DNA of 63,980 nucleotides, counting the filler, from Sphacelaria rigidula (lineage: Eukaryota), in assembly GCA_964200075.2 (NCBI GenBank). It is 3 parts of 3 records of this genome, joined end to end, with 100 filler letters (N's around TTAATTAATTAA, not from the genome) between each part and the next. Parts side by side here need not be neighbours in the genome. Positions count along the whole stretch, not along the records: positions 43,155 to 63,980 come from CAXNAA020000490.1; 2 more parts are not named here. One strand, given 5' to 3'. The translations under genes were made by a program, and so were the position numbers. A model generated the notes under the pieces. It saw only the letters and a list, made by a program, of their open reading frames with translations, did no database searches and was not told the origin of the DNA. Below, piece by piece: positions 43,055 to 62,531 of this stretch (positions within the stretch are counted from its first letter, which is position 1; each line of letters starts with the position of its first letter).

Positions 43055-43335
43055 NNNNNNNNNNNNNNNNNNNNNNNNNNNNNNNNNNNNNNNNNNNNTT
43101 AATTAATTAANNNNNNNNNNNNNNNNNNNNNNNNNNNNNNNNNNNNNNNNNNNNAAAATGCTTTGTGCGGTATCTCACCAACCAGACTGCCGAATTCCTC
43201 GAATGGGGTACTGTACGGTAGCTGCATGCACAGGACGTGTGCTCAAGCAAAAAAACAAAACAAAAAAATGCCTGTTAGGAACGCTGGAGCATCCACTCTG
43301 AATCTGAAACTACGTTCTGAATCTCACGAATATAG

Positions 43336-43990
43336 TGTAAACTCGTGCTCCCAGAGGTGACCACGGACATCTGCACACGAGATTTGTACTCGTTCCGGCA
43401 CTCCAGTTTCGTCGCGATCTACGCCACTTGTAGCTACTTTGTTGTTGCTGTCCTCTTCTGGTGTACTTCGCATAGCTGTAGAGCAGCGCGGTACATCACC
43501 GTGGTAAGTAACAATACACAGCACAACGAACTGTGAGTTTTCTCTCATTTTGACCCCCTCTCGAACAAAAAATTAATGAATTGTTCCGAGGCAGTTTCGT
43601 CGTGATATACGTTATTCGTAGCTATTTTGTTGTTGTTGTTCTCTTCTGGTATACTTCGCACAGCGTAGAGCAGCGCTGTACATCACAGTAATAAGTAACA
43701 GCCCACAGCTCCACGAACTGTGAGTTTTCCCTCATTGACCTCCTCTCGAACGAACAATCATGTATTGTTCCTAGACGGTTTCGTCGTGATATACGTTATT
43801 CGTAGCTATTTTGTTGTTGATGTTCTCTTCTGGTATACTTCGCACAGCTGTAGAGCAGCGCTGTACATCACAGTAATAAGTAACAGCCCACAGCTCCACG
43901 AACTGTGAGTTTTCCCTCATTGACCCCCTCTCGAACGAACAATCATGTATTGTTCCTAGACGGTTTCGTTGCGATAATACACGTTTGACA
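43336..43990 (+). repeat. Putative 5' LTR containing three tandem ~185-bp units (43404-43960)
   Basis: Starts TGTAAAC and ends GTTTGACA (TG...CA, imperfect inverted ends). Units start at 43404, 43592 and 43776. No second LTR copy is available to confirm it. Confidence 0.45.
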
Positions 43991-45201
43991 CATTCCAAAC
44001 CTACGTTACGTGCTCATTTGGAGCAGACAGCACTCGAAACCAGTGCCCCTTACCTGTGCACTACTTTTTTCGGCACCGCCCTCAGCATTGCCCCTGCTAT
44101 GCACAACATTCAGCCTTATTTCACATACGTACGTTGTCCCACTTCCGCTGTGTAACAAGCCTTGCCTGTGCACTACGAGGTCCGATCTCGTGGTCTACAT
44201 CCCAACCTTTGTAGAAGCTTTTGTGCTGCCCTACGCTGCACGATCTTTCGGTGCTCATCAAAAACAAACTTTATTGAACACCGCCAATCGTTTCTCAACT
44301 TGTGCCGGGGTAATACAGTTATAGTCTGCCTGTGACGCCACAATCGGAACACGTGTGAGTTGTACGACTTTCACGTACCAACGCTGCTACAGACAATTGG
44401 ATTTTCGCTTTTCTTCGACGCCATACGTCTGTTCTGTGCACAAGCCCGAGCTTCCGTTGACAGCTATTACCGCCACAACTTAGATAAGTTGTAGTAACCA
44501 GACCCTGGACATTGTTGTTACATACAGCAATTCGCTTGAATAAAAATATTCGAGTTCATTCGGTCCCAAGGTCCCCCCTGGCGCTATTAGGCTTCAGTAT
44601 CCCGTATTTCCGGATACAAGCTTCGGCCGTTGCACGTAGCATATCCTGGTGTCACGCTCCTTTGATTAGAGCCCGCAGACCAAACACACTGCCCCTGCCT
44701 TTTCAAGCACACAAGTTGCGTACGATTATCATGTCGCGTACAAATAGCGCTGGCTCTTCCCCTCAATTAGGAAACCAATCGCTTCGTCGGACACGGAGTC
44801 AAACCACTGGCGGTTCGAAATCTTTTGATATGAGTGTCACGTCACCTTTAACTCGTCGCCGTACGTATGCGAGCGCTGTTCGATCTTCGGGAGCTGAAGA
44901 CCAACCTCCGAGCGATACTCGTTCTTTGAGGCTTGAAGACAAGACTATGACGCCGCGACCTGTTCTCTCACGTTCCGACTCGGAGTCAGAGAACAGGCTT
45001 GTGCTACCGGCTGAGTCATTGGTTCCTGACGGACATGTCAGTGAACCCGTAACGGTAGATTCCGTAGCGCCCCCCTCGCTGCGTCCTGTTCTTCCGAATC
45101 TCAATGGGGATTCCGAAGTCAGGATTGTGCCCCCAGCAGAGTCGTTGCCCCTGGACACACGTGTCCAGCTTGGTCCTGTAACGGTTGCTTCAACCGTGGC
45201 A

Positions 45202-45500
45202 CCCCGTCGCATGACGGCTGACAACTCTCGAGACGATTCTTTCCCGACGAAGCATATCGCTTCTGGAGCAAGAGACTTTGTCACGCGGACTGCTTCCGTA
45301 CCCCGTCGAATGACGGCTGACAACTCTCGAGAAGATTTTGTCGCGACGAAGCATATCGCTTCTGGAGCGAAAGACTTTGTCACGCGGACTGCTTCCGTAC
45401 CCCGTCGCATGACGGCTGACAACTCTTGAGACGATCTGTCCCGACGAAGCGTATCGCTACTGGAGCGAGAGACTTTGTCACGCGGGCTGCTTCCGTTACG
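45202..45500 (+). repeat. Three 99-bp (33-codon) tandem repeats in the gag extension
   Basis: ccccgtcg(c/a)atgacggctgacaactct recurs at 45202, 45301 and 45400 (PRRMTADNSR..F..KHIASGA.DFVTRTASV). Confidence 0.9.
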
Positions 45501-46288
45501 GTTCCCTATCGCACGACTCTCGATAGTCCCGTGCGCCCTACTGCGCAGTCCAATGTTGGACCCGCAATTGCGGCCGTGCATGCTGCCATGCAAACTCTGC
45601 ATCGCGCTTCATCGGCGTCGTCGCACTCGCCAGCTTCAGCTCTCATCGAGGCATTTACGGCTTTCTGCCAGGCCACGCTCCAAGATCAATCGGCGTCTAC
45701 TCACGTGCAGTTCAATGATGATTCTTCATCTGCCACGCCCAAACCTGTACGTTTGGCGCCCCGATCGGCGACATCGCGCCCTCCGCTCGTCACTCATGAA
45801 AAATTCAACGAACATGAGTCCAGCCCCTCCTCAACATCAAACCAGAGTCTTACTCGCGCTTCTGACCGGCGCCGCACACCGACACTTGGTCACGACCACG
45901 CCTCCCGTTCTGGCAGTTCCAAGGGCAACTCCCAGCAAAGCTTGAAAACATCGCGCGCTTTTACGTTCTTGTGTTTTTACACGCCCGAAGAACATCGCTC
46001 ACGGTCGCAAATATGACGGCAGTTCACGCCACAGTTCCACTTCATCGCGCGCTCCAAAGCGCCCGGTGAATGCCAACCGTGAACATACTCACGAGGATGA
46101 TTTGTGGGACAGGTCAAGTTCTTCGCGCGTTCACACGCGCTCGAAAAAAAACGATCATACACCCGCGCGCACCTCTCCTGCTCCGCATCTGTCACGCCGC
46201 CATCATGTGCGCCATGATAACGCTGTACATGCTGATAAAATCCAAAACATATTTTCGGACATGTCACCGGCTCTGGAATCCTCAATTA

Positions 46289-46694
46289 ACCAAGGATTCT
46301 ATAAAATGAGGTTCATCAATGAAATGAGGTTCGAGCCCAAAACATTACTTTCTCCACACTTTCAGCGATGGTGCCCGATGACGTTTTTGTCGGCCTAATG
46401 CCCCTCCATCGCGTAGGTACTTTTTCAGCGCATTTTACCGATTCTGGGAGCTTACAGCGCTGACCAAAACTGCTGTTTTCCCTGATATCACCCCCCCTAA
46501 AACATGAGTAGAAATGGCGGTTTCGGACAACGCTGTAAGCTCACAGAGTCGATAAAATGCGCTGAAGAAGTATGTACGCGATCGAGGGGCCGACAGAAAC
46601 GTCATTGGGCACCATCGCTAAAAGCGTGGAGAAAGTACTGTTTTGAGCTCGAACCTCATTTCATTGATGAACCTCATTTTATAGAATCCTCTGT
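46289..46694. mobile_element. Tc1/mariner-type foldback MITE inserted in the Gypsy gag region
   Basis: ~190-bp imperfect TIRs (AC(CA/AG)AGGATTCTATAAAATGAGGTTCATCAATGAAATGAGGTTCGAGC...) flanked by TA at 46287-88 and 46695-96. Confidence 0.9.
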
Positions 46695-47696
46695 TATTTG
46701 AAGAGTCCGGCCGCACCTCATCGCAAAATCGACGACCCCGCACTGACCGCGAACCACCGTCCCGCTCCGATGCTGCGACTATTTGCTCTCTTTAACATCG
46801 ATTGACAGAACTTGAGCGCCAACTCTCAACAATGGACAACACAAGATCCACTGCCGCTGCCGCCAAGATCACCACGGAGCCCTCTGGCGTTCCTGCAGCA
46901 ACTACTGCCGCAACACCTGCCGCTGCCGCCGCCGCTACCTTGGCCGCTGAGCCTTCTGCGACGCCAACTACACTCACGGCTCCAAAACCCGTGGCCGCCC
47001 CGTCCGCAGTCGACACCGACGCGGATAGCGGTCCCACCACTGACCCGGTCGAAGATGCCCCCGTGCGCTCGCCCCCATCCGTAGAGGATCTCCCTCCGCT
47101 CGGCGACGAGTGCTGTCCGACTGGCCTCCTCTTGAGGCTGTTCCGAAACCGCCCCCGCACGGAGCAGCTATAACTCATTGACGACTACGCGTCACAAGCA
47201 CCAGCACTAGCACAAGACATCCTCGACCAGCAACGCGAAGCTGACGCTGACGCTGCCCGCCTCCTTCTGGACTAGCACGCTGAGAAGCAAAATGATCTTC
47301 AGCGGCAGGTCTCCAACGCTCAATGCACGAGCACGGCTGCGCAACGAGCGCTGCAGGAAGGTCGCACTGCAGCCATGGCGGCTCAGAGACGGGTACTCGA
47401 GCTGGAAGACCATGTCCGATGGACGGCTCAAGAAGCGGCTTCGTCGGTGGCGCGCTTGTCCAACCATCAAGCCTCTCCGCCTTCCACCAGCAGCTTGCTC
47501 AGTGCCCGTCCGCCTCGCCAGCCAACGACCAACATGTCTACTTACGTAATACTACCTAAGTCCGACAAGACGTCGTATGCTGCGGCCGCTGCCGCCCCCA
47601 CGACGGCTCCAGCACCGCCACCTCGTGGAGCTAGCTCGGCGGCGAATGCCGTCCCTGCCCAAGGCTTGCAACTGGCGCCCCACGACCGAGAATGGC

Positions 47697-47883
47697 TTTC
47701 TCGTTCCGTGGCCGCCCATACCGGTCCCTTCCATCGCAGCAACCACCTTCATTGCTCCCGCGATGCATAGACCCTTATTTCGCAGCAACCTTTCTCGTTC
47801 GTGGGGCGCCCATACCGGTCCCTTCCATCACAGCAACCACCTTCATTGATGCCGCGATGCATGGACCCTTATTTCGCAGCGAA
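47697..47883 (+). repeat. Two ~93-bp tandem repeats in the gag extension
   Basis: tttctcgttc...cccataccggtcccttccatc.cagcaaccaccttcattg...gacccttatttcgcagc is duplicated. Confidence 0.85.
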
Positions 47884-50800
47884 TGTTTTACGCCGTTGGC
47901 GTTTACGTGGACCAGGGCGGATTCTTCCCCAAAGAGGCCGTATCGGTGCTCACCTTGGGCCAACTGGTCCTCCAAACGACCATTGGTGATCACCAGGAAC
48001 ACTAGACTTACGTTGACGCGGTCACCAGACTTTTTGCGGCGCTCCGCACCGCTTACAACACTCACCCCGGCGCCATTATCGCCGACGGAGGCAAAGATGA
48101 AGATGGGTGGACTCTCGCAACCACCAACTGCCGGGGACAGAAGAAAAATCACCGGCGAGATGACGACGACAACGATGGCGGAAATTCATGCCGCCGCCAT
48201 GGCGGTGGAGGATGTTCTTCGGGCGGTTCCGGACCGAATCGCCCGCCTCGCCACCCGCACCGCAGGAAACCCAGAGGTAACTCTCCCGGTTCTTCCGCGA
48301 CTGGCTGGAAACGGTCTGGTTCAGACCTTCCTCCCTCGGGTCCGGCGACCCCCAAGCAAGTGATTCCTAAATTGGCTGATGTTTCGGCCAGCATTTTAGG
48401 TTTATCCGATACGGACACACCTGACCGTCCTTTGTCTTCTACTGCAGCCCACGCCTTAGCAACCGCTACGACTGACAATAAACGCTCCGAAGCTAGCAAT
48501 AAAGCAGCTTCCGATAAGGCCGAGTCTGCCCGAGTAGCTGCAATACAGAGACAGTATATTCAGATGGATGTGAAAAAAACTCTGGCACATCAAAACCATG
48601 CCTGCTGCGGATAACGAAGATTCGAGCCAGTTTACTTCTACCCTTTTCACGCCCATCCGCCGCACTGTTTGCAACATCCTTCACTTGGCGGATGCAACTG
48701 GCACACAACGTTTCGAAGATTCCGACTGGGTAGAGGGCTGGCAGACTCCCTTGCACAAAGCATTGCATCGATCCATCAGCCACCACTCTCCCGACCTCGC
48801 TGCTTCTTGAACGCAGATTCTCGACGGCTTCCTCGCCGAGATGGATCCGGACCGTGCCCAGGGGAAGGCAGGCCCGGTATTACTCTCTGATGTGGAGAGG
48901 CGTTTAATTGGTTACTTCGACAAAAGTGACCAGGCCAGCGCCATCCAAAGGCTGAGTTTTTTCGTCGTCGCATCGGATGTCCCCTTTGCGAATTATCTCC
49001 GCGAATTTAAGCTTTTGGTTTCGGATATGACGGGTGTCGGGCGCCAGAACGGACCGAGCGATGCAATGTGTCCGACTTACGTTCGCAATAGCGTTGCTCA
49101 ACAGTATCCGGTTCTAGTGCCGTCGTTGTTTCCAGGTGTTTTGGCGCATCGCGAGGTGCCTTACGCCTCCGTTGATACTATGTGGTGTGCTTTTGTACAC
49201 CAAGAGGGTAATCTAACGCCTGCCATAGGTGGCAAACCTTCTACGCCTTTGCGTTCACAACCTACGGTTGTGTCCTCCGCTCATGCCCAAGGGTCTCGCG
49301 GCAGGAATTTGAGCTCATCCCGCGCTTCATGGACCCCCGACTCGGTCGGCGGTTCAGTTATGCATGTTCAAAGTACCAGAGATGCATTTAGCGCGAGTTT
49401 TGACGGTTGTCCGTTTTCCGAGGAAACTTGGGATGATGTTTATTTGACTTCAACAACGGTATTCATTACCGATGACCCCCATTTGAGGAACCCACTTATT
49501 TCGTCTTCCGCTAGACGTAATGCCTTCAGCAGTCATGCCAACAGCTGTATCAACTGTACTGTTCAACGCCACAGTATGCGCGACTGCGACAGTCCATGCA
49601 TCAATGCCTTTGATCTCATGAACCCTGAATTGCAGGATAATGAACCCGCGTGGCGCCGATGGCAAAAACGCATGCGCGACTACCGCCCACCTAATCGAAA
49701 TTACCGTAACAACTCAAACCAACGTTGCAACAAAAGCTCTAATCGCGGTTGCCGACAAAACAACAATCACGGAAGCCCTCGCCAGAACGATCAAAATTAT
49801 CGTGACGACAAACGTTCCGTTGATGGACACCAGCGGACGGGACCGACACAAAGCTCGAACCCCGACACCAGAAACCCTGGTACCTTCACTACGGATCGCC
49901 TAGATTCATGACGTGCCGACGTCGGCATTCTTCGGTCTTCCACGCCGCCGATAGCACGAGCGAAGACTTTCTCAACACAGCCCGCGGAGTCCGTGTCAAA
50001 AAATGCTCACTCGACTCCCCCGGCACTATCCAGGAGCGTAACTGACGGCCGTTCAAATTGACCCCCGTCTCCAACTTCCTCACAATTTTCAAGACAGCCC
50101 GCAGAGCCCGCGACCAAGATTGTCCGCCCGGCTCCCCGGCACTATGCAGGAGTGCATCTGACGGCCGTTCAAATCGACCCCTGTCTTCACTGCTCCACAC
50201 ACCGCGTAACAGTTGTGTCACCCCGCGACTCAGACCTACACCCGGCTTTGAACTTGTTCCTTCAGTGCCGAGTATAAGTCTGAGGTGTGAGAAGACCAAC
50301 CGTGAGGCAAAGGATTCCCTCAGCGACCGCACGCACAGGTAGTAGCAAGCCTTTGTTCAGCTGACCCAAGTGTTGCTGATTTGAACTTGACCACAGCGGA
50401 TCATGTAATTCCCAATCAGTTGGATCGAGCTCCTTCCCCGCGATTTTCAACACGCACGGACCTACCTTCGGCCGCTTCTAATAACAACCGCCCCAACATA
50501 TCTTCGGTTATGCCCCAAACAGCCAAGCTTGCCTACGGAAAGCAGCCCACAAGTTTGGCTCCGTCATGCCCCGATGCTGACCCCATCCACGCAACCGGAC
50601 GCAGTTGTGGTTTCATCACAAACCTTTTTGGAAGTCCCCCGACCTTTTGTCCCGGCGAAAGAGAAAGCCCCGTAAGCATGCCCCCAAGGACGCGCGCGCA
50701 TCATCACGTACACCCCTTTCGAGCGGAAATCCTCGACCTCTATCTCTCCAAAATCCGACGACTTTGAGTTCGACGACTCTATTAAGTATCCCGGAAGAGA

Positions 50801-51071
50801 CAAAATCAAATAACTCTAACGCCACCACTTCTTCAATCGATGACTCCAGCCCCGCACATTCTGGATCCCCCTTGGACGGTGATCCCTGCCAACCGAAGAC
50901 GATAAATTACAAAATCGCCAATGGTCACTCTGACCGTGCCACACCTGGAAATAACACACCATCCACGCCCTTCTCTGGTGAAACATCTGACCCACCGGCG
51001 GATCACTCGCCGTGCGTTTTTGCTGTCAGTCCCGCTGATCCTGACAAGTTTATCTTTCCGGAACACGTAAA

Positions 51072-51440
51072 GTGTCTGTAGATCCGCCTACTTTCACTAC
51101 TCGCATTGCGATCCATTCCGGTCCAAACGCTATCACGCCTACGAAATGCGTGTCGTTCTTGGACAGCGGCAGCCCGCAAACATTTCTTCGTGAATCAACA
51201 TGGAAACACATTAGACAGACTGGCGCTGCTACTGCAGCTTGCGAAACCACCACCAAACCTCGCGTGTGGGGCGGTTTCGGTGATTCTGCCGCGTCACTGA
51301 CGACACGTAAATCCGTACGATTCAGAGTGCAATTCTTTCACAACACCACTCGATCTGCCACACTGGCAGTCTGGGCATACATTGTCCCCGACAGCACAAT
51401 GCATCACGTCATATTATTGGGCAGAGATAGCATATGCGGT
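51072..51440 (+). pseudogene. pol: Retropepsin aspartic protease
   Basis: FLDSGSPQTFL catalytic motif (D at 51162) and ILLGRD motif. Confidence 0.9.
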
Positions 51441-52029
51441 TCAACAAACGCACCTCCCGCACGCTTCCACCACTAATGCCACATTCCACGCCGCGTGGAG
51501 AATTCAACCTCGAGCACTTCGGTACTCTCCACGGCGCCCTGGCCTATCAGAAGAGTCCTCAAACAACCGGAGCTGCTTACCACCTACGATATAACGGTAG
51601 GGTCGGTATTACACTCTCCGACGACCCGCAACTTCTTGAAGTTGCACTAGTTCGCCGAAATGGCATGTCAGCACTTACGGGCCATTATCGTGCCGAAATG
51701 TTGCCCCGTATCGGCGAACCAGCCGACACAGAACATCTTGTGTCGGCGGGACAACAACTCCTCCCTCTTACGGGTCATGCTAACTTGGAAGCCGGCGATG
51801 GTTTAGGAATCGCCGCTGCTCCCCTGATGCACATCCCACTCGAGACGTGCGTCACAGAGCCTGCCGCGCCAAACGCCACATCCCCGGCGGAGTCAGTCCA
51901 ATGTGTCGATGAACCCTATTTCGACCTCGCCTCCGCGACTCCATCCCAGGTCCACACCATGGATCCTGCCCAGGCAATTCCGATCCTCCTGCTGAAGTGC
52001 TTCAATGCGTATCGCCAGATTCTCGGAAT

Positions 52030-53510
52030 AGTTCCTTGCACATGTGGAACCAACTGCCGCCACACATGCGCGACATCAATTTTTATCTTCGTGGGCCCGG
52101 CTGGGAACCGGCAGTCATCCGAGAACTCAATGATATTCTGCTACAGTATTAAGACCGATTTTCCCGATCAAAGACGGATCTTGGGCATTGCAAAACACTG
52201 CCCTTTGAGGCTACCCTCCAACCCGGTGTCTTGTCGATTTCTTCTCGGCCGTACCGAACAAGGGCGATCCTTACCACGAACGTTAACGCCATCTTGGATG
52301 CGTAGTTGGAAGCGGGATTAATACAACATTCCTCCTCTCCTTGAGCCTTGCCCTTCGTGGTAGTCCCCCAAAAGAATGGAAACATACGCAAAACCGTGAA
52401 TTATCAACGGTTGAACCGCGTCACCGTAGTCGGTAAACTTCTATTTCTCCGTATTGATGAAATCTTCGACTCCTTAGGCGAAGGCAAAATATTTAGCACC
52501 TTCGACCTCGCTTCTGGATTTTTTCAGAATGCTATACACCCTGACACAGTCCCACTGACGGCTTTTTATACCTCGTCCGGACTCTATGAGTGGCTTCGGA
52601 TGCCACAAGGCGCCCCCACTGCCCCGGGATACTTTCAACGCTTAATGCAACGCGTCACCGAGGGCCTCGAGCACATCATCATGTACCTGGATGACGCTAT
52701 CGCTTTCGATGCCTCACCTATTGCACATATACGCACTCTACGCTAATTTCTCTCTCGCCTACGCACGCACGATTTGAAAGTGTCTCCATCCAAAGCTCGC
52801 CTTGGTGCGACTGACTTGAATTTCTTGGGACATTTCATTTCGCTAGCAGGCCTGCATCCGGATACAAACAAAGTCAAGGCGATGAATGATTTGCCAATGC
52901 CAACTAACATTTCTCAACTTCGCTCATTGTTGGGAGAGCTATTCTACTACCGCAATTTTTTGCCGAGTTCATCTAAACGGATTCGCCCCCTTACTGCGTT
53001 ACTCAAGAAAGGAGCCGTGTTTTCTTTCACAACCGGAATGAAGAATATCACCCACGAATTACTCAAGACGCCTACCGAAAAGCCGGTACTTTGCTTTCCC
53101 GATTGGGAGGCAGTACGAGATGGCTCCCACCTTTTCTAACTCCACACTGACGCCAGCACAAACGGATGTGGAGGAGTTTTGAATCAACCTCAGGTTGATG
53201 GCTCTGTCCCACCCATCCTCCATATCAGCCGCGCTATCCTGCCCAACGAGGCTAATTGGAGCCCGCTAGAACTGGAAGGTGGAGTAATCACTTGGGCCAT
53301 TAAGTGCCTTCGACAATGTCTGTTTCACGTGCCCTTTGAGATCTATACAGATCACGGAGCACTCGAACAACTCGCCAAGGTTGGCGAACACAACCCGCGT
53401 GTACAACGATGGTTGGGGTTTCTCACAGCATACCAGTATACCATTAAGCACCGTCCAGGCAAAACCAACGAGAACGCTAATCTTCTTTCTCACCTACCTC
53501 TCCCGCCTAC
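52030..53510 (+). pseudogene. pol: Reverse transcriptase and RNase H (interrupted)
   Basis: RT motifs PFVVVPQKNG, VNYQRLN, FSTFDLASGFFQ, YEWLRMPQG and YLDD (52684). RH motifs LHTDAS, NWSPLELE, YTDH and RVQRW..FL..YQY.IKHRPGK. In-frame stops near 52342, 52744 and 53137. Confidence 0.95.
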
Positions 53511-54129
53511 AGCCGCAGATTCCAGTCCGGCTTGCCGTTCAAAGGAACCCGATGAACCTGAAATTGACGCGATCAGACGTTTCCCAACGCCCGTTTACGC
53601 CCTCGACCTCCAGTGCCCGGAAACCGGTATGCATATGGGAGGACCTCGCCCTCTACCATATGACGCCGTCTTGGGTGGGTTAAAGCCCGCTGCCTCCGAT
53701 TTTGTCGATTTTCGCACTTTCGGTACTCGTGCGAAATTCTTCGCGGAGACACCTACAGTCACCCACCTTATCTCCGACAACACGCGCTCTTGGTCTATCG
53801 CCTGCACCACAACGAGTGCCCCGCCGCCACCGATAACACCTACAAAACCCACGAGCCACGCAGTACAAGTTCCACGGACCAGCATGCAACGCTCCGCGAA
53901 AACTCCTGCAACGTACACCACGCGCCATGAACAATCTTCGTCGCGCACTAATACAGCCCCGCCGCCCACCACGGCGCCGCCAACATTTACCGCTCCCGGA
54001 CACGGCGCTGACGACCTAGCTCCTGCCTCCGGGACAGATATTGATGTCGGCATTCCCGCCCCGTCGCCTATTCCCGCGCCGCCTGCCCCACCATGTTTGG
54101 TCGGCTCGCCAACGTAAGATCAACTACGC

Positions 54130-56332
54130 AAGTTTTTCGCCAGCTACTCCCACCGCGATTGGACTCGCGACAGACCGCAGAACCGCTACGTCGCGCAACC
54201 ATTCGGTACTTACAACTCGACTGTCCAGTCCCTTTTCCATCCACACTTCTGGCCCCGGTTGGGACACTGCCACCACCAGTTACTTCTGACGTATACGAGC
54301 TTGTGCGTAAAGGCACCCTTTTTACTACAGATGAAGATGTGCAACTACTCGTGCGTCCGCCCACGCCTTTGACAGGCGCAATTGCCGTCTCAACGACGGG
54401 ACGCACCGCACGACTACTCAATGACGAACCAACGCGCATATATGTGCCATTATTAATGCGCCCCTGAGTCATGACAGGCTGCCACACAGGCTTGTCATGT
54501 CACCTTGGCGTCACCCGTACTCTCGCGCTCTTGGAACGCTCCTACTGGTGGGTTGGCATGAAAATTTCAACCCGCTTCTGGATTCGGCGATGCTTTAAAT
54601 GCCAAGCCCGAAAAACTTCACGACAGACAGTACGCTGGCTCGTCATCTCTATGGGACTCCCCAACGAGCCCGGCCACCTTGTGTTCTTTGACTACTTTGG
54701 CCCTCTACCGACCATAGGTCGCGGCACACCTACATCTTACTCTTCACTGACCGCTTCAGCCGCCACGCGCCCATGTACGCGGTAACCGCCGCAGATTTCA
54801 CTGCCGCCGGAACGGCCGACATATTGGTCCACGATTACATTAAACACCACAGTTTCCCCAAGCGACTACTTTCAGACAATGGTCAGCAATTTTGCTCAGA
54901 TCTCTCTGATGAGCTTTACAAGCTCCTGGGCATCCGCAATATTGCCACGAGCGCCTACCACCCGAACGGTAACGGTGGTACCAAGAGAGTCAACTCCACC
55001 ATGGCGCAGATACTCTCTGTGGCTGTCAATGACCGCCAAAATGACTGGGACCTCATCTCTCGCACATCATGTTGTCCTACAACAACTTGGTTAATACCGC
55101 CACAGGCCTTTCTTCGAACGGACTTCATCTTGGACGTTACCCTCGGCTGCCTATCACCGTGTTTGAGCGACACACGTCCGACGGCCACCAAGGATTGGAT
55201 TAGGATCAGATATCCTACCATGAGCTAGCGCATGCGCGACAATGCAAAGCGTTTACCCTCGTGCGCGAACAGCACACTATCAACGCCTCGCTCCTAGAGA
55301 GATCTAACACTGATCTCTACAACCTCATGCACAAACGCCCCAACTAGGAAGTTGGTGATTGGGTTTGGATCTACAACAATTTGTCAACCATCCGCCAAGG
55401 CACCAGCAAGGCAGCCAACGAAACAATTTTGAAGACAAAATTGTCCCTCAATTGGATAGGACCATTCAAGATCCTGACAGTCGGACCTTCGTCATCATCA
55501 CCAGATGAAAAACTCGTTGGCGACGAACTGTTCTATCTCGACTTGCCTCGCGACTTCCAGGGCAAAGATACCAAGCCCCGCGTCTCTGTGCACAGATGCA
55601 AACCCTGCACGAACCCGCATGATACAAGTGACATGCCCAAGTACCTGCCTGCCGGACTCGCACAGTATGTTCTCAACAGCTACTCGACCAAGTCCCCGCC
55701 CTACTACGTTACAACCGACGACGTGACGGAACAGCCCCTTCGATTGATCGTGTCATCCATCTCCGGCCACCAGATATCACGTGGTCGAGGTGGCAAAATC
55801 GCTGTCATGTATAAGACACACTGGCACGGTCTTCGGAGAGCGTCTTGGGAACGCGAATCCGACCTGCAATTGCACCACCGTGCAATCCTCCTTTACTGAA
55901 CGCAATCCCCAACATCAGCATCTGGCTCACAACAAGAAATATCGCAACATGCGTCATGGCGCAGCAGCCCGCGAACTTTACCGTAATCAGGGACTACGCT
56001 TTGGTGCCGACGGTTACGAACTTGTACCCACCAAGACTTGTAAGACGAAGTTCTTCGCGAACCAGCGACTCCTGCCCAAGGGCAGCTACCTTTGGTTCGA
56101 AGGCAGCGACAACCTCTTGTGGTTGGGTCAGACCCACTCCGCTAACCTGGTTTCGGCCGACACATACATCGTGCGCTTCATCGATGACCCTGGACCCATA
56201 CAGCTCAAGCTAACCACCAACCCATCTGCACCACACGCATCCTGGTGTCTCCAGTGCCTCAAGTCCAAAGGACTTCGCCGTGGTCTCCAGCGCAGCATCG
56301 ACCACACCCACGACGTCCACGCCCCGCTTTAA
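54130..56332 (+). pseudogene. pol: Integrase (HHCC, DDE, GPF) with chromodomain and C-terminal extension
   Basis: CHTGLSCHLG...CFKC zinc motif, DYFGPLP, LLSDNGQQF, YHPNGNGGT(K)RVN (catalytic E mutated) and WIGPFKI. Chromodomain ISGHQISRGRGGKIAVMYKTHWHGLRRASWERESDL at ~55740-55880. Confidence 0.92.
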
Positions 56333-56597
56333 ACCACGCTTCCCTGTAGCAACTGTTGCCCCACCCCCGTTTTTTCCGTAAACAGTGTCTGCCCTCCCTT
56401 CTCCAACAGGACCCTCTCCTACGACACCACAATAGCGGGACCTACATCAGACGACGATCAAGAATTACTGAGACGACCACCACCTACGACTACCAGAGCT
56501 ATAGTATCTCCTCGCTACTGGCGCTCGATCTGGTTGGATCATCGATTTTCAGATTTATGATCTTGCAGGTTTTAGCACTTTTGGGTTCCCCTAGGTC

Positions 56598-56910
56598 GAA
56601 GCTCTGCTCCCTGTTGTACCTTTGGATTCCCCCAGGTTGAAGCTCTGCTCCCTGTTGTACCTTTGGTTTCTCCCAGGTTAGAGCTATGCTCCCTGTTGTA
56701 CCTCCCTGTTTTTTCCACCCTTAATCTTCGCTAGGACGCCGGAGCAATTTGTGCTTCTTCGTTGATCTCTAGCACGCAGAAGCAGTTTGTGCTGCCGCGT
56801 TTCGGAGCAGTTTTTCTGCTCCTCGAAGCAGTCTATGCTTCCCTTCCTTTGAGGTGTAGGAGTGGGTACAGGAGTGTTGGTACGGGAGTGTTGGGCACGG
56901 GAGTGTTTCC
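56598..56910 (+). repeat. Short tandem repeats in the retrotransposon 3' UTR (~42-bp and ~14-bp units)
   Basis: gctct/atgctccctgttgtacct occurs three times, followed by ggagtgttgg-type units. Confidence 0.75.
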
Positions 56911-56929
56911 TTAGGTATGCATTATTTCC

Positions 56930-58800
56930 AGCACATGGCTTCACGGGTAAAAAAAAACTTAGTTTTCGCTGCTCTGAGGATAGATCCTCGCAGCTATACT
57001 AATGATTCGTCTGGGTGGGTTAGTGTCATGAAGACGCATACTAACCTGTTGTCATGCCGCCTCAGACCTGTTGTCGAATCTGGCTATCTGCATTTCTGGC
57101 TATTTCGTGTTTGGAGTATTCTAAGATACAAGACTACAGGTCTGTTCAGAGTTTGTCAGGTACGAGTGTGAATCTGTATATTGCAGAGATGATGTCGGCT
57201 TTGCTCGCAGAACACGAACAAAGCTGCCACCATCGGTCACTACCTACTGCTCCCCTACTGCGTTCCAGCAAAAGAAATCTCAGCATCGGTGAGACGTATT
57301 GACTGGTTCGAGTTGGATTGATTGATTGGGTACTGGAAATTAGAGACAAGCTAATCAAGAAGAAGTGAAGAACCATCGCGTGAGAACTCGTCTGATATAT
57401 TGTGCTGAGCGGTGTTCAGCAGTGTGCAGATCTGTGCCAGCCTGACTGTTGTCCACTTGCCTTATGAGCTTGTATCTTGGACTACAAGCTGTGTCCTTGC
57501 TATAACAGCATAACAGCCACATTATAAAGAACCAACTTTGGGGGATGCAGGTGATCCGATCGAACACCAGACACTGGTTCTTCACCTTTGACCCCGACAT
57601 TTCGGTTATCGAAATCCAAATTTGCATGGCGTTTGGAAGTTGTCGATAGCTACCAGCAAGTGAAAAAATGGAAGCATACTTCGAAGATTTGGTATGTATA
57701 CAGAGATTTTAATTCTCCAGGTTTTCATCCCCAATAAAACAATCCATCCCCAATTTGTAAAATCCCGTGTTTAATACAAGGTTGCCCTTCGGGAGGTTCG
57801 TATGGGTCTTCCAGGTGTGACCCCCAACCAAGTCGGAAATATATGGTTAAGAAAGGCTGTTGTATCTCAATGTACAGTGATCGTGGCTGTTCATAACATC
57901 GCATGTGTTATCGGATGTCGTTTGGAAATATGGGAATTCGGACGAAGGCCGGCGGCGGAACTGCCGGCGTAGGGCATGTATGGTATTTCCGAGGTGCTAG
58001 AGTGCGAAGTAGCTCTCGTGCCACAAAGACATGACAGCGGGAGGCACTCCCGAAAAATTGGAATGCGTGGAACATTCTTCGCATCTTCTTTGTACATCAC
58101 TGTGGCTCCCACTTCACCGGGCCTTTTTTTCAAAACAGGGTGATGGTTCTTTGCGGCAAAACATTCCTGTGCTGCCATGCTGTGTGCCTTGTTCAACTGG
58201 CCAACGGCCCATTGCACGGTCTTGTGTTTGCTACTGACTAAGGCCAACGCAATGTTCGACTGTTTTCAACTGCTTTGCTCTCATGTTTTCGTGACAATAG
58301 CGGCATAACCGGTGTGTTCGTGCTCCCAAATGAACGAGAACGCGACAAGAAACACGAGGGAAAATACCCCGCCAAAAGTAATCCTGTTTTGAAGACTTCC
58401 ATGATCTTCAACAGGCTTTTTTGTCGTTCGGGTTCTTGTATCAAGTTTTCCGTGATCTCGAAAAGGCTTTTGTCGTTCGGGATCGATACCTCGCGAAAAA
58501 AGGTCAGTTTGAGCGAGTTTCGGTGGCCGGAACACGCGCCACAGGTATCAGATGACATCCAAACCTGAACGGCAATGTACCGCTAAGCCTTCTCAGTGCG
58601 CTGCAAAAGAAAGCGCGGGAAAAAATGCCTTGCCGCCAGGGAGTACTTGGCAAAAGTGGTGAAAAATGTGAAATGATACAGGTACATATATAGAACAGCT
58701 GGAATGAGCCCACACCGCAGGCAGAAAAAATCATCAGCGAGCGAACCGTTCCACTTTTTCTTCTCGTAGCAGGCAACGTGAACGTGCGACACACAGCGTC
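56930..58800 (-). pseudogene. Possible heavily decayed hAT-like transposase remnant
   Basis: Fragments in hAT-like order: FFCLRC...ARHF (BED-like), IWEHEHTGYAAIV...NIALALVSSKHKT, RVLTRWF and LTDAEI. Many stops; interrupted by a MITE arm. Confidence 0.3.
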
Positions 58801-61097: not shown

Positions 61098-61849
61098 CTG
61101 CAGCAAAAGGGTAAAAGGACAAATGAGTAGATGAGCAGATAAGTAAATGAGTAGATGGGCAGATCAAGAAATATACAAACGACTACATGAATAGATGGAA
61201 TTATGAATATATGAATATGGATACATGAGTACATGTAGAGATAATCCTTTTTTTCTTGGTATGTGGAGCAGATATAAATATCTTCAAAGTCCCAGTGTGA
61301 TAAGTGGTGGTGAGCGAGAAGAGCTCAAGAAAATCGCTAATTACGGAAAAACCACAAAATGCCACAAGATGATGAGTTAGATCGCCCACTACTCTATACC
61401 TTTCGCAGTACCTTTCTTATCGATTGCAACTACTGACCATCATATACTGTCCTGGGTGTCATTTTTTTCCCGCGCATGCGTACTTACAGACTCGCGACTC
61501 ATGCCACCGCAGGGGTTTGCACGTTTGAGCCCGGATATTTCTCACTTGGGGGGCTGCCAAATTCAGGGGCTATTATACACACGAATATGAGTCAGGACGT
61601 TGCCGATTCAAATTTCATTAGGGACATGCATAGCCGATTGGAAGGATGATAGCGGCGTGCCGTCATATATTTCACCGGTCGTGTTGTGGGTGAGACATTG
61701 GGCTCCTAACAATTCAAACCTTGGCAGCCCTACCGCGGCATGACTCCTACGACGGTCGTACAATAAAGGCAGCAAGGGGATACGGCGAGCTGATCATGCT
61801 TCGTGAGTACCGCAGTATGACACACACATACACACACAGACACACACAC

Positions 61850-61945
61850 CTCGAAGAACTCGTTGATGTCAATGGAGTCGTTGTTGTCCATGTCCATGAC
61901 ATCCAGCATGGCATCGAAGTTCTCCAGGTGTTCCCCATCTGCCGC
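61850..61945 (-). CDS. EF-hand protein, penultimate exon (C-terminus resembles PPEF/rdgC Ser/Thr phosphatases)
   Basis: ctctcag| acceptor and gag|gtgtgt donor, 96 nt, phase 0-0. AADGEHLENFDAMLDVMDMDNNDSIDINEFFE contains a canonical EF loop DMDNNDSIDINE. Confidence 0.88.
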
Positions 61946-62055
61946 CTGAGAGTTGATCAGCTCGCATCCCTTTTTTTCGGGGAGGGGGAGGGAGGGGGGG
62001 ACCCGAGAACAAGGGAACAGCACAACATACACCAAAGACGTCAGCAACAAAAAGA

Positions 62056-62531
62056 GGGGGGGGGGGGTGGATGTACTCATAATCTCGCATACTACATATT
62101 TAAGACTTTTGGCCTCGCATCCCTACAAAGCCGCGACCGGGCACGCCGGGTTTTCGGCGGACCAGGGAGGGCGGGGGGGTACTCATGATCTTGCAGCTAG
62201 TCATGTGACCCCGGTGACCTCGCATCCCTACAAAGCCGGGACGTAGAACGTCGGGTTTTCGCCGGCCCAGACTCGTGGGGAAGGTGTACTCGTGATCATG
62301 GATGCCGTAGTCATCAGACCATTGATCTCCCATCACTAGAAAGCCGGAACGGAGCACGCCGGGTTGTCGCCGGACCAGGCTCGCACCCAATCACCAAGCG
62401 CGAAGCGCCGTGGTGTGTTGGGCGAGTCGCATGCAGGGTGAGCTGCATTATCCTGCGAAGATTGTTCGGCATACAGATTATCTTGCACTTGGATGGCAGC
62501 GTACAATGAGTTGCTTTATTTTCTGGTATCG
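62056..62531 (-). mobile_element. Three stacked poly-C-tailed retroposon copies (one long, two ~110-bp short) upstream of the EF-hand exons, probably intronic
   Basis: gtactc(a/g)t(g/a)atc...cctcgcatccctacaaagccg...ggttttcg.cgg.ccag is repeated at ~62072, ~62179 and ~62286, each preceded on + by a G-run. Confidence 0.85.

Follow-up and report, generated by a model that had tools for sequence, protein, structure and literature searches.

The site at which an LTR element lands is decided by the tail of its integrase. Chromodomains, which usually bind H3K9me and H3K27me3, are found in several of the integrase tails described to date. In the yeast elements Ty3 and Tf1 an SH3 domain is followed by a chromodomain without cage aromatics, and in Ty3 this cage-less chromodomain is packed against the SH3 domain and makes contact with both Brf1 and target DNA (bioRxiv 10.1101/2021.07.27.453949). 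Plant group II chromodomains lack the first and third cage aromatics (PMC3605345). In Ectocarpus four Gypsy lineages have been described, three of which carry a C-terminal chromodomain (one of them together with NADAR), the fourth, Gypsy-10, carrying a Tudor domain and being called the first TE with such a domain (PMC12477816, 2025). The same source places the brown-algal chromodomain lineages outside the chromovirus clade, so that the chromovirus label implied in a sequence-only reading of the present locus probably does not apply. It further reports that in Ectocarpus H3K9me and H3K27me3 are absent, that 5mC is negligible and that H3K79me2 marks TEs. The chromatin background assumed in the sequence-only reading agrees with this for 5mC, H3K27me3, H3K9me and H3K79me2; that reading also assumed the loss of PRC2, a word that is absent from the main text of the source. 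Finally, the centromeric Gypsy element ECR-1 of Ectocarpus has an integrase-chromodomain fusion with three intact cage aromatics, a length of 6.6 kb and one ORF (PMC11541908).

The window, i.e. the whole stretch of 63,980 nucleotides of Sphacelaria rigidula DNA that was analysed, contains on its + strand a broken copy of a ~14-kb brown-algal Ty3/Gypsy element. Its size lies within the 12-14.5 kb listed for several Ectocarpus families (PMC12477816). The family shares the integrase-chromodomain fusion with ECR-1, from which it differs in cage, length and ORF organization, and with the NADAR-bearing Ectocarpus lineage IV (e.g. Gypsy-12_Ec32; PMC12477816). As in Ty3 and Tf1, the SH3 domain is followed by a chromodomain that has lost cage aromatics, in the pattern of the plant group II domains. 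Unlike Ty3, Tf1 and plant group II, which as described end at the chromodomain, the integrase continues into a basic helix and a second, Tudor-like barrel. Gypsy-10_Ec32 likewise has a C-terminal Tudor domain on Pol, but is set apart by its description: it belongs to a separate RT lineage, its Tudor replaces the chromodomain, and it measures 11.5 kb with 636-bp LTRs (PMC12477816). The word 'Tudor' is absent from the main text of PMC11541908, bioRxiv 10.64898/2025.12.07.692804 and PMC5348765, and no description of a tandem chromodomain and Tudor module was found among freely available papers, including bioRxiv 10.1101/2021.11.30.470311. What appears to be new is therefore the conserved chromodomain-helix-Tudor-like integrase tail with degenerate cages; the Tudor Gypsy and the NADAR chromodomain lineage were already published in 2025.

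The copy in the window is a dead relic, a degenerate LTR retrotransposon of at least 14.4 kb (43155..57526). Its 5′ LTR is missing at a scaffold gap (~43055-43154), directly after which the 5′ internal sequence begins, and no second LTR copy is present within the window; the sequence downstream of the 5′ LTR of other copies maps to 43340-44420 and 46758-47502. The 5′ part contains tandem repeats of ~186 nt (43381-43976) and 99 nt (45201-45496), the 99-nt units lying within an open frame, and a MITE-like hairpin insertion of 434 bp without assigned strand (46275..46708; inverted repeats I3 and I11). Copy L081 spans 46287 to 46698 without the hairpin, which was found also in the regions flanking L072, L073 and L079. 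A probable gag-region open frame (48811..49911) is assigned from its position, without Pfam match. The order PR-RT-RH-INT of the Pol domains that follow is that of Ty3/Gypsy elements (Metaviridae). The region at 51072..51431, which has no Pfam call and is 44% identical to residues 444-562 of the relative P0182, we take to be the protease from its D[ST]G motif. Reverse transcriptase and RNase H (51946..53718; RVT_1 E 7e-15, RT_RNaseH E 3e-21; 50% identical to P0182) contain internal stops, and the integrase zinc finger and catalytic core (54471..55054; Integrase_H2C2 E 1.8e-12, rve E 8e-7) are frameshifted.

The C-terminal part of the integrase begins with a GPY/F-type SH3 domain (55348..55610, the right end being approximate), placed by alignment and by a match to SH3_Tf2-1 below the cut-off (E 0.011); its long loop insertions are conserved clade-wide. 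The chromodomain (55735..55896; Pfam Chromo E 0.15, best homolog E 1.7e-4) retains one of three cage aromatics and a conserved RG.GG hairpin. After a break (55897..55910) follow a basic linker (55911..56071), which from the model, the composition and the invariant residues comprises a long Arg-rich helix (~55934-55987), a short strand and a second helix, then a predicted Tudor-like five-stranded SH3 barrel with two of four cage aromatics (56072..56260), and the C-terminal end of Pol with its stop codon (56261..56332). The 3′ untranslated region has three 41-nt tandem units (56577..56699), the number of which varies among copies. A short G-rich tract at the position of the polypurine tract (57013..57023) precedes the 503-bp 3′ LTR (57024..57526), the start and end of which are common across 30 LTR loci; together with a TGGCG motif after the 5′ LTRs of other copies these are terminal features of Ty3/Gypsy elements. 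Just 3′ of the 5′ LTRs, L054-L082 show two variants of the primer-binding site within one family, which share the TGGCG start and then diverge. At L055, L067 and L069 the LTR directly precedes mid-Pol sequence, or internal sequence lies on both flanks, as in rearranged or tandem copies. No Rfam matches were found in 43155-58000, and Pfam gave only a spurious GFA match on the extension in the window. Contigs of four sequencing runs, two of them putatively RNA, cover the stretch and are uninformative on transcription.

The sequence-only reading held that, beyond a stop or frameshift near 55897-55905, coding-like sequence with a Tudor-like motif continues for ~140 residues, and this was confirmed. 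The chromodomain frame (55348-55896) ends at a stop codon at 55897-55899, and an extension of 143 residues follows in another frame, open from 55748 to 56332, with the motif starting at 56072. Comparison with the frames of other copies shows that the break is private to the window copy, which also lacks five codons near 56211; the full extension in other copies has 148 residues. When the own genome was searched in tblastn fashion, 916 candidates were obtained, and all of the 150 that were scored matched, with 68-100% identity. Chromodomain and tail are both present in 28 of the 30 best loci and share one frame in 27 of these 28, the exception being the window copy. Among 49 further loci (L002-L050, without the window copy) 47 span the region from chromodomain to barrel, with a single frame in 39/47 and no stop in 21/47; such shares exaggerate intactness, since the loci were taken as the best tail matches or manually (20 of the 150). 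Natural uninterrupted frames of 716, 2075 and 2184 residues pass from the integrase into the tail.

Selection on the extension was assessed from two subfamilies that are ~75% identical, with 36 and 13 copies, using uncorrected ratios because Jukes-Cantor estimates are near saturation for two regions. The net pN/pS of the barrel is 0.19 (bootstrap CI 0.09-0.36) compared with 1.03 and 2.06 in the shifted frames, and the corresponding values for the chromodomain and the linker are 0.07 and 0.38. In addition, in 13/13 loci the two subfamilies cease to be similar at the DNA level once the stop codon (56330-56334) is reached. The shared frames, the end of the similarity at the stop codon and the pN/pS values rule out an artefact of a decayed frame: the extension is under purifying selection and forms the genuine C-terminal end of the integrase in a brown-algal Ty3/Gypsy clade.

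The clade with the two-barrel tail is abundant and deep in brown algae. The 207-residue module is matched by 478 cluster representatives at E<=0.001. The 163 proteins aligned to its profile, mostly short fragments, comprise 40 with both domains, 76 with the barrel only, 43 with the chromodomain only and four with neither; integrase and module occur together in eight long proteins. A word-based search for longer proteins with the tail alone as query gave 0/283 candidates. At least two further families are present in the own genome, 44-49% and 23-31% identical to the query, and the more divergent one has a 2,075-residue RT-RH-integrase frame in which the whole module aligns (213 columns, hhalign 99.9%). 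The tail is also carried by a protein of Nemacystus decipiens, while a protein named for Sphacelaria rigidula is 93% identical to the own-genome sister family and is not independent evidence of range.

The closest described architecture is that of P0182 (2,184 residues; NADAR-RT-RH-integrase), which has the same chromodomain-plus-barrel module at its C-terminal end, is 37-62% identical to the Pol segments in the window and, from its architecture, can be inferred to belong with lineage IV. In an unrooted integrase tree of 11 rows, from which P0172, P0175 and the divergent L132 frame are absent, it falls among module-bearing relatives. The text of PMC12477816 names the chromodomain alone for lineage IV, and since P0182 combines that architecture with a barrel, the barrel seems to have been missed in the published NADAR lineage. 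Residues 205-354 of P0182, the NADAR domain, are unmatched in the window, and the divergent 2,075-residue frame also lacks NADAR. Without this domain, the window family is best treated as a relative of lineage IV and not as a member of it. Two NADAR matches in the own genome lie in loci that are otherwise without Pol similarity. At L051 (G000:C4:35363-35809) a NADAR domain 36% identical to that of P0182 lies in a 720-residue frame without other Pol similarity, which is probably a host gene.

An AlphaFold2 model of a natural open copy, calculated with 109 sequences, has a pLDDT of 89.9 and a pTM of 0.82. The modelled chain consists of the chromodomain (residues 10-60), a helix (71-88), a strand, a second helix (103-111) and five strands (122-184), and chromodomain, Arg-rich helix and barrel are predicted to fold as one unit of ~200 residues. 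The modelled chromodomain, a three-stranded sheet with a C-terminal helix, can be superimposed on that of Chp1 with a VIA Z of 7.1 and an rmsd of 1.4 over 53 aligned residues, and the chromodomain of the divergent family matches Swi6 (E 0.002). Residues 61-116 of the linker contain 12 Lys/Arg versus 3 Asp/Glu, and its invariant residues are an Asn, a Tyr, three Arg, a Gly and a second Tyr. The barrel has a pLDDT of 89-96 in the two-domain model and adopts the same fold when folded alone (pLDDT 84); the model thus firmly supports a five-stranded barrel of the SH3-like type expected in the sequence-only reading. In a search of PDB sequences with the tail profile the PHF19 Tudor domain is the best match (E 0.004), and the Polycomblike proteins PHF19 and PHF1 account for 9 of the 10 matches up to E 10. 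Strands 1-3 align with these Tudors without gaps over 41 columns. Foldseek also ranks PHF1/PHF19 first, with E ~0.02 and rmsd values of 1.6-1.8 over 44-45 columns. Compared with PHF19/PHF1, the present barrel lacks the first and fourth cage aromatics, is fused to an integrase chromodomain, and is matched over ~41-45 residues.

The Tudor cage of PHF1 is formed by Trp41, Tyr47, Phe65 and Phe71 (Tyr80 in PHF19); MTF2 has three of the four cage aromatics and binds weakly (PMC7492083). The equivalent positions in the present proteins were located by aligning the sequences with PHF19 and Swi6, the gap-free PHF19 alignment being extended by four residues to reach the last position. Among 101 barrels, two cage aromatics are present in 69, one in 30 and none in 2, and no barrel has three or four; only the second and third are retained, and in the near families a neighbouring Asp is conserved as well. 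In the divergent family all four positions are without an aromatic in 17/17 sequences (two with a stop at one position), although its barrel core is kept. Of the three chromodomain positions, one is aromatic in 38 of 48 sequences, two in 5 and none in 5, and the retained residue is a Trp. The three aromatics of group I (methyl-lysine-reading) chromodomains are present in none of the 48, and the aligned barrels appear to lack the four-residue cage of the PHF1/19 type. Judged from these alignments, both methyl-lysine cages are degenerate. The absence of H3K9me and H3K27me3 and the negligible 5mC in Ectocarpus fit with the decay of the chromodomain cage. The bivalent histone reading that had been proposed from the sequence, for which an aromatic cage was to be looked for, is thus not upheld in its canonical sense.

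The near and far families share 40 residues; eight of these are Arg or Lys, some of them within the long helix and the RG.GG hairpin. Aromatic residues common to both families occur at positions 58, 59, 73, 93, 98, 124, 125, 132 and 179 in linker and barrel, and these could form a non-canonical pocket. In the divergent family an aromatic residue lies one position off the fourth barrel position (94%) and, in 8/17 sequences, another precedes the first chromodomain position by two residues. Some homologs have a net charge that is no more than mildly basic, or neutral (P0008, with 30 Lys/Arg to 29 Asp/Glu). The RG.GG hairpin (55780-55795) aligns with the RMARKGGG loop of Swi6, which mimics H3K9, and it also resembles an RGG motif.

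On balance it seems probable, by a modest degree, that the module acts as a methylation-independent tether of the intasome, comparable to the cage-less chromodomains of Ty3 and Tf1. In this arrangement of SH3 domain, chromodomain, Arg-rich helix and Tudor-like barrel, the module would grip target or nucleosomal DNA through its conserved arginines, a host chromatin protein, or both, and such contacts, independent of methylation, would steer insertion. With most of both methyl pockets lost, the pair probably steers insertion through its grip on DNA or a host protein. A precedent is found in the tandem Tudors of PHF20L1, which bind nucleosomal DNA regardless of methylation and have lost methyl selectivity (PMC13285377). 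The other shared aromatics, the near-neutral charge in some homologs and the lack of a visible insertion preference would count against a tether. Although the marks read by canonical chromodomains are missing from brown algae, selection maintains a two-barrel tail in this Gypsy clade; the tail is not called by Pfam and is unmentioned in the text of the 2025 curation (PMC12477816). The module, small and predicted to be well folded, offers a bait for what defines TE-rich chromatin in brown algae, and a test of whether reader folds become methyl-independent tethers once the marks are lost.

It is unlikely that H3K79me2, H4K20me3 or H3K36me is instead read by the aromatics that remain, either on their own or within a composite pocket of chromodomain and barrel, so that insertion is directed preferentially to chromatin bearing the mark. 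The predominance of PHF19/PHF1 Tudors among the PDB matches, the conservation of two cage aromatics and the neighbouring Asp in the near families, and the presence of H3K79me2 on Ectocarpus TEs are consistent with such a reader. However, not one of the 101 barrels reaches the three aromatics with which MTF2 is already a weak binder, the divergent family lacks all four, and most chromodomains (38/48) keep one of three.

We also regard it as improbable that the module mainly builds the intasome, through integrase oligomerization or binding of the element's own cDNA or RNA ends, with little role in the choice of chromatin targets. The rigid predicted unit and the conserved basic residues would suit such an internal function, and the VIA-align matches of the barrel include SH3 barrels associated with nucleic acids (TraI, Z 7.3; the Esa1 knotted Tudor, Z 5.8; KOW, Z 5.6). 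According to the title of one paper, the Tf1 chromodomain promotes cDNA binding. In addition, the outer flanks of the 30 LTR loci share short repeat matches only, without a common target sequence, and tRNA genes were found at 0/30 (ARAGORN, bacterial setting, flanks up to 1.5 kb), a result on which Ty3-like targeting of tRNA genes was rejected. Dispersed flanks are also compatible with targeting of a chromatin state, however, and the flank results neither support nor oppose it. Moreover, the closest sequence resemblance of both domains is to chromatin-protein folds, and the barrel also terminates ORFs that lack an integrase.

The ancestry of the barrel is a question separate from these mechanisms. 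The sequence-only reading had called it Tudor-like, and this is supported by the best sequence and Foldseek matches, PHF19/PHF1 in both cases, although nothing was found at E<=0.001 in Foldseek or at Z>=8 for the barrel in VIA-align. The further VIA-align Z values are 7.0 for Spindlin-4, 6.5 for RDM15 and 6.4 for PHF19, all below that of TraI, and Pfam assigns SH3_VIII-1_N to 12 and Agenet to 7 of the 109 members, all weakly and the latter below the cut-off; both results would suit an unrelated KOW or SH3 barrel. The best ESM Atlas scores (0.86 and 0.80) reflect low recognition, and the rows for Spin/Ssty, Agenet, KIF2A-N and PTM Tudor are leads only. A duplicate of the integrase's own domains was rejected, since profile-profile comparison gives 0.7% with its SH3 domain (a profile of 11 rows only) and 0.15% with its chromodomain. 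An origin of the barrel outside the Royal family, by duplication or from an unrelated barrel, is thus distinctly unlikely, and Tudor or Royal-family ancestry is likely.

It is very doubtful that the fused chromodomain-helix-Tudor unit combines a composite non-canonical pocket with DNA contacts and recognizes H3K79me2 (or H4K20me3) nucleosomes, which would mean that a retrotransposon clade has itself evolved a reader suited to the alternative repressive chromatin of these algae.

Some of the proteins with a matching tail have unusual architectures. P0072, P0176, P0088 and P0070 are coiled-coil or low-complexity ORFs of 612-832 residues that lack an integrase and end with the barrel; three of them have no chromodomain, and P0070 has chromodomain and barrel with an aromatic residue at the first cage position. 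Shuffling may have transferred the tail to host genes or to the gag-like ORFs that deletion derivatives carry. P0030 (Nemacystus decipiens g3980.t1) is a gene model in which TIMP and WSC domains are fused to the tail, and could reflect either an erroneous joining of models or the exonisation of a TE fragment. Downstream of the element, the neighbouring host gene contains an exon-like frame on the - strand (61730-62122), with a putative EF-hand-like motif.
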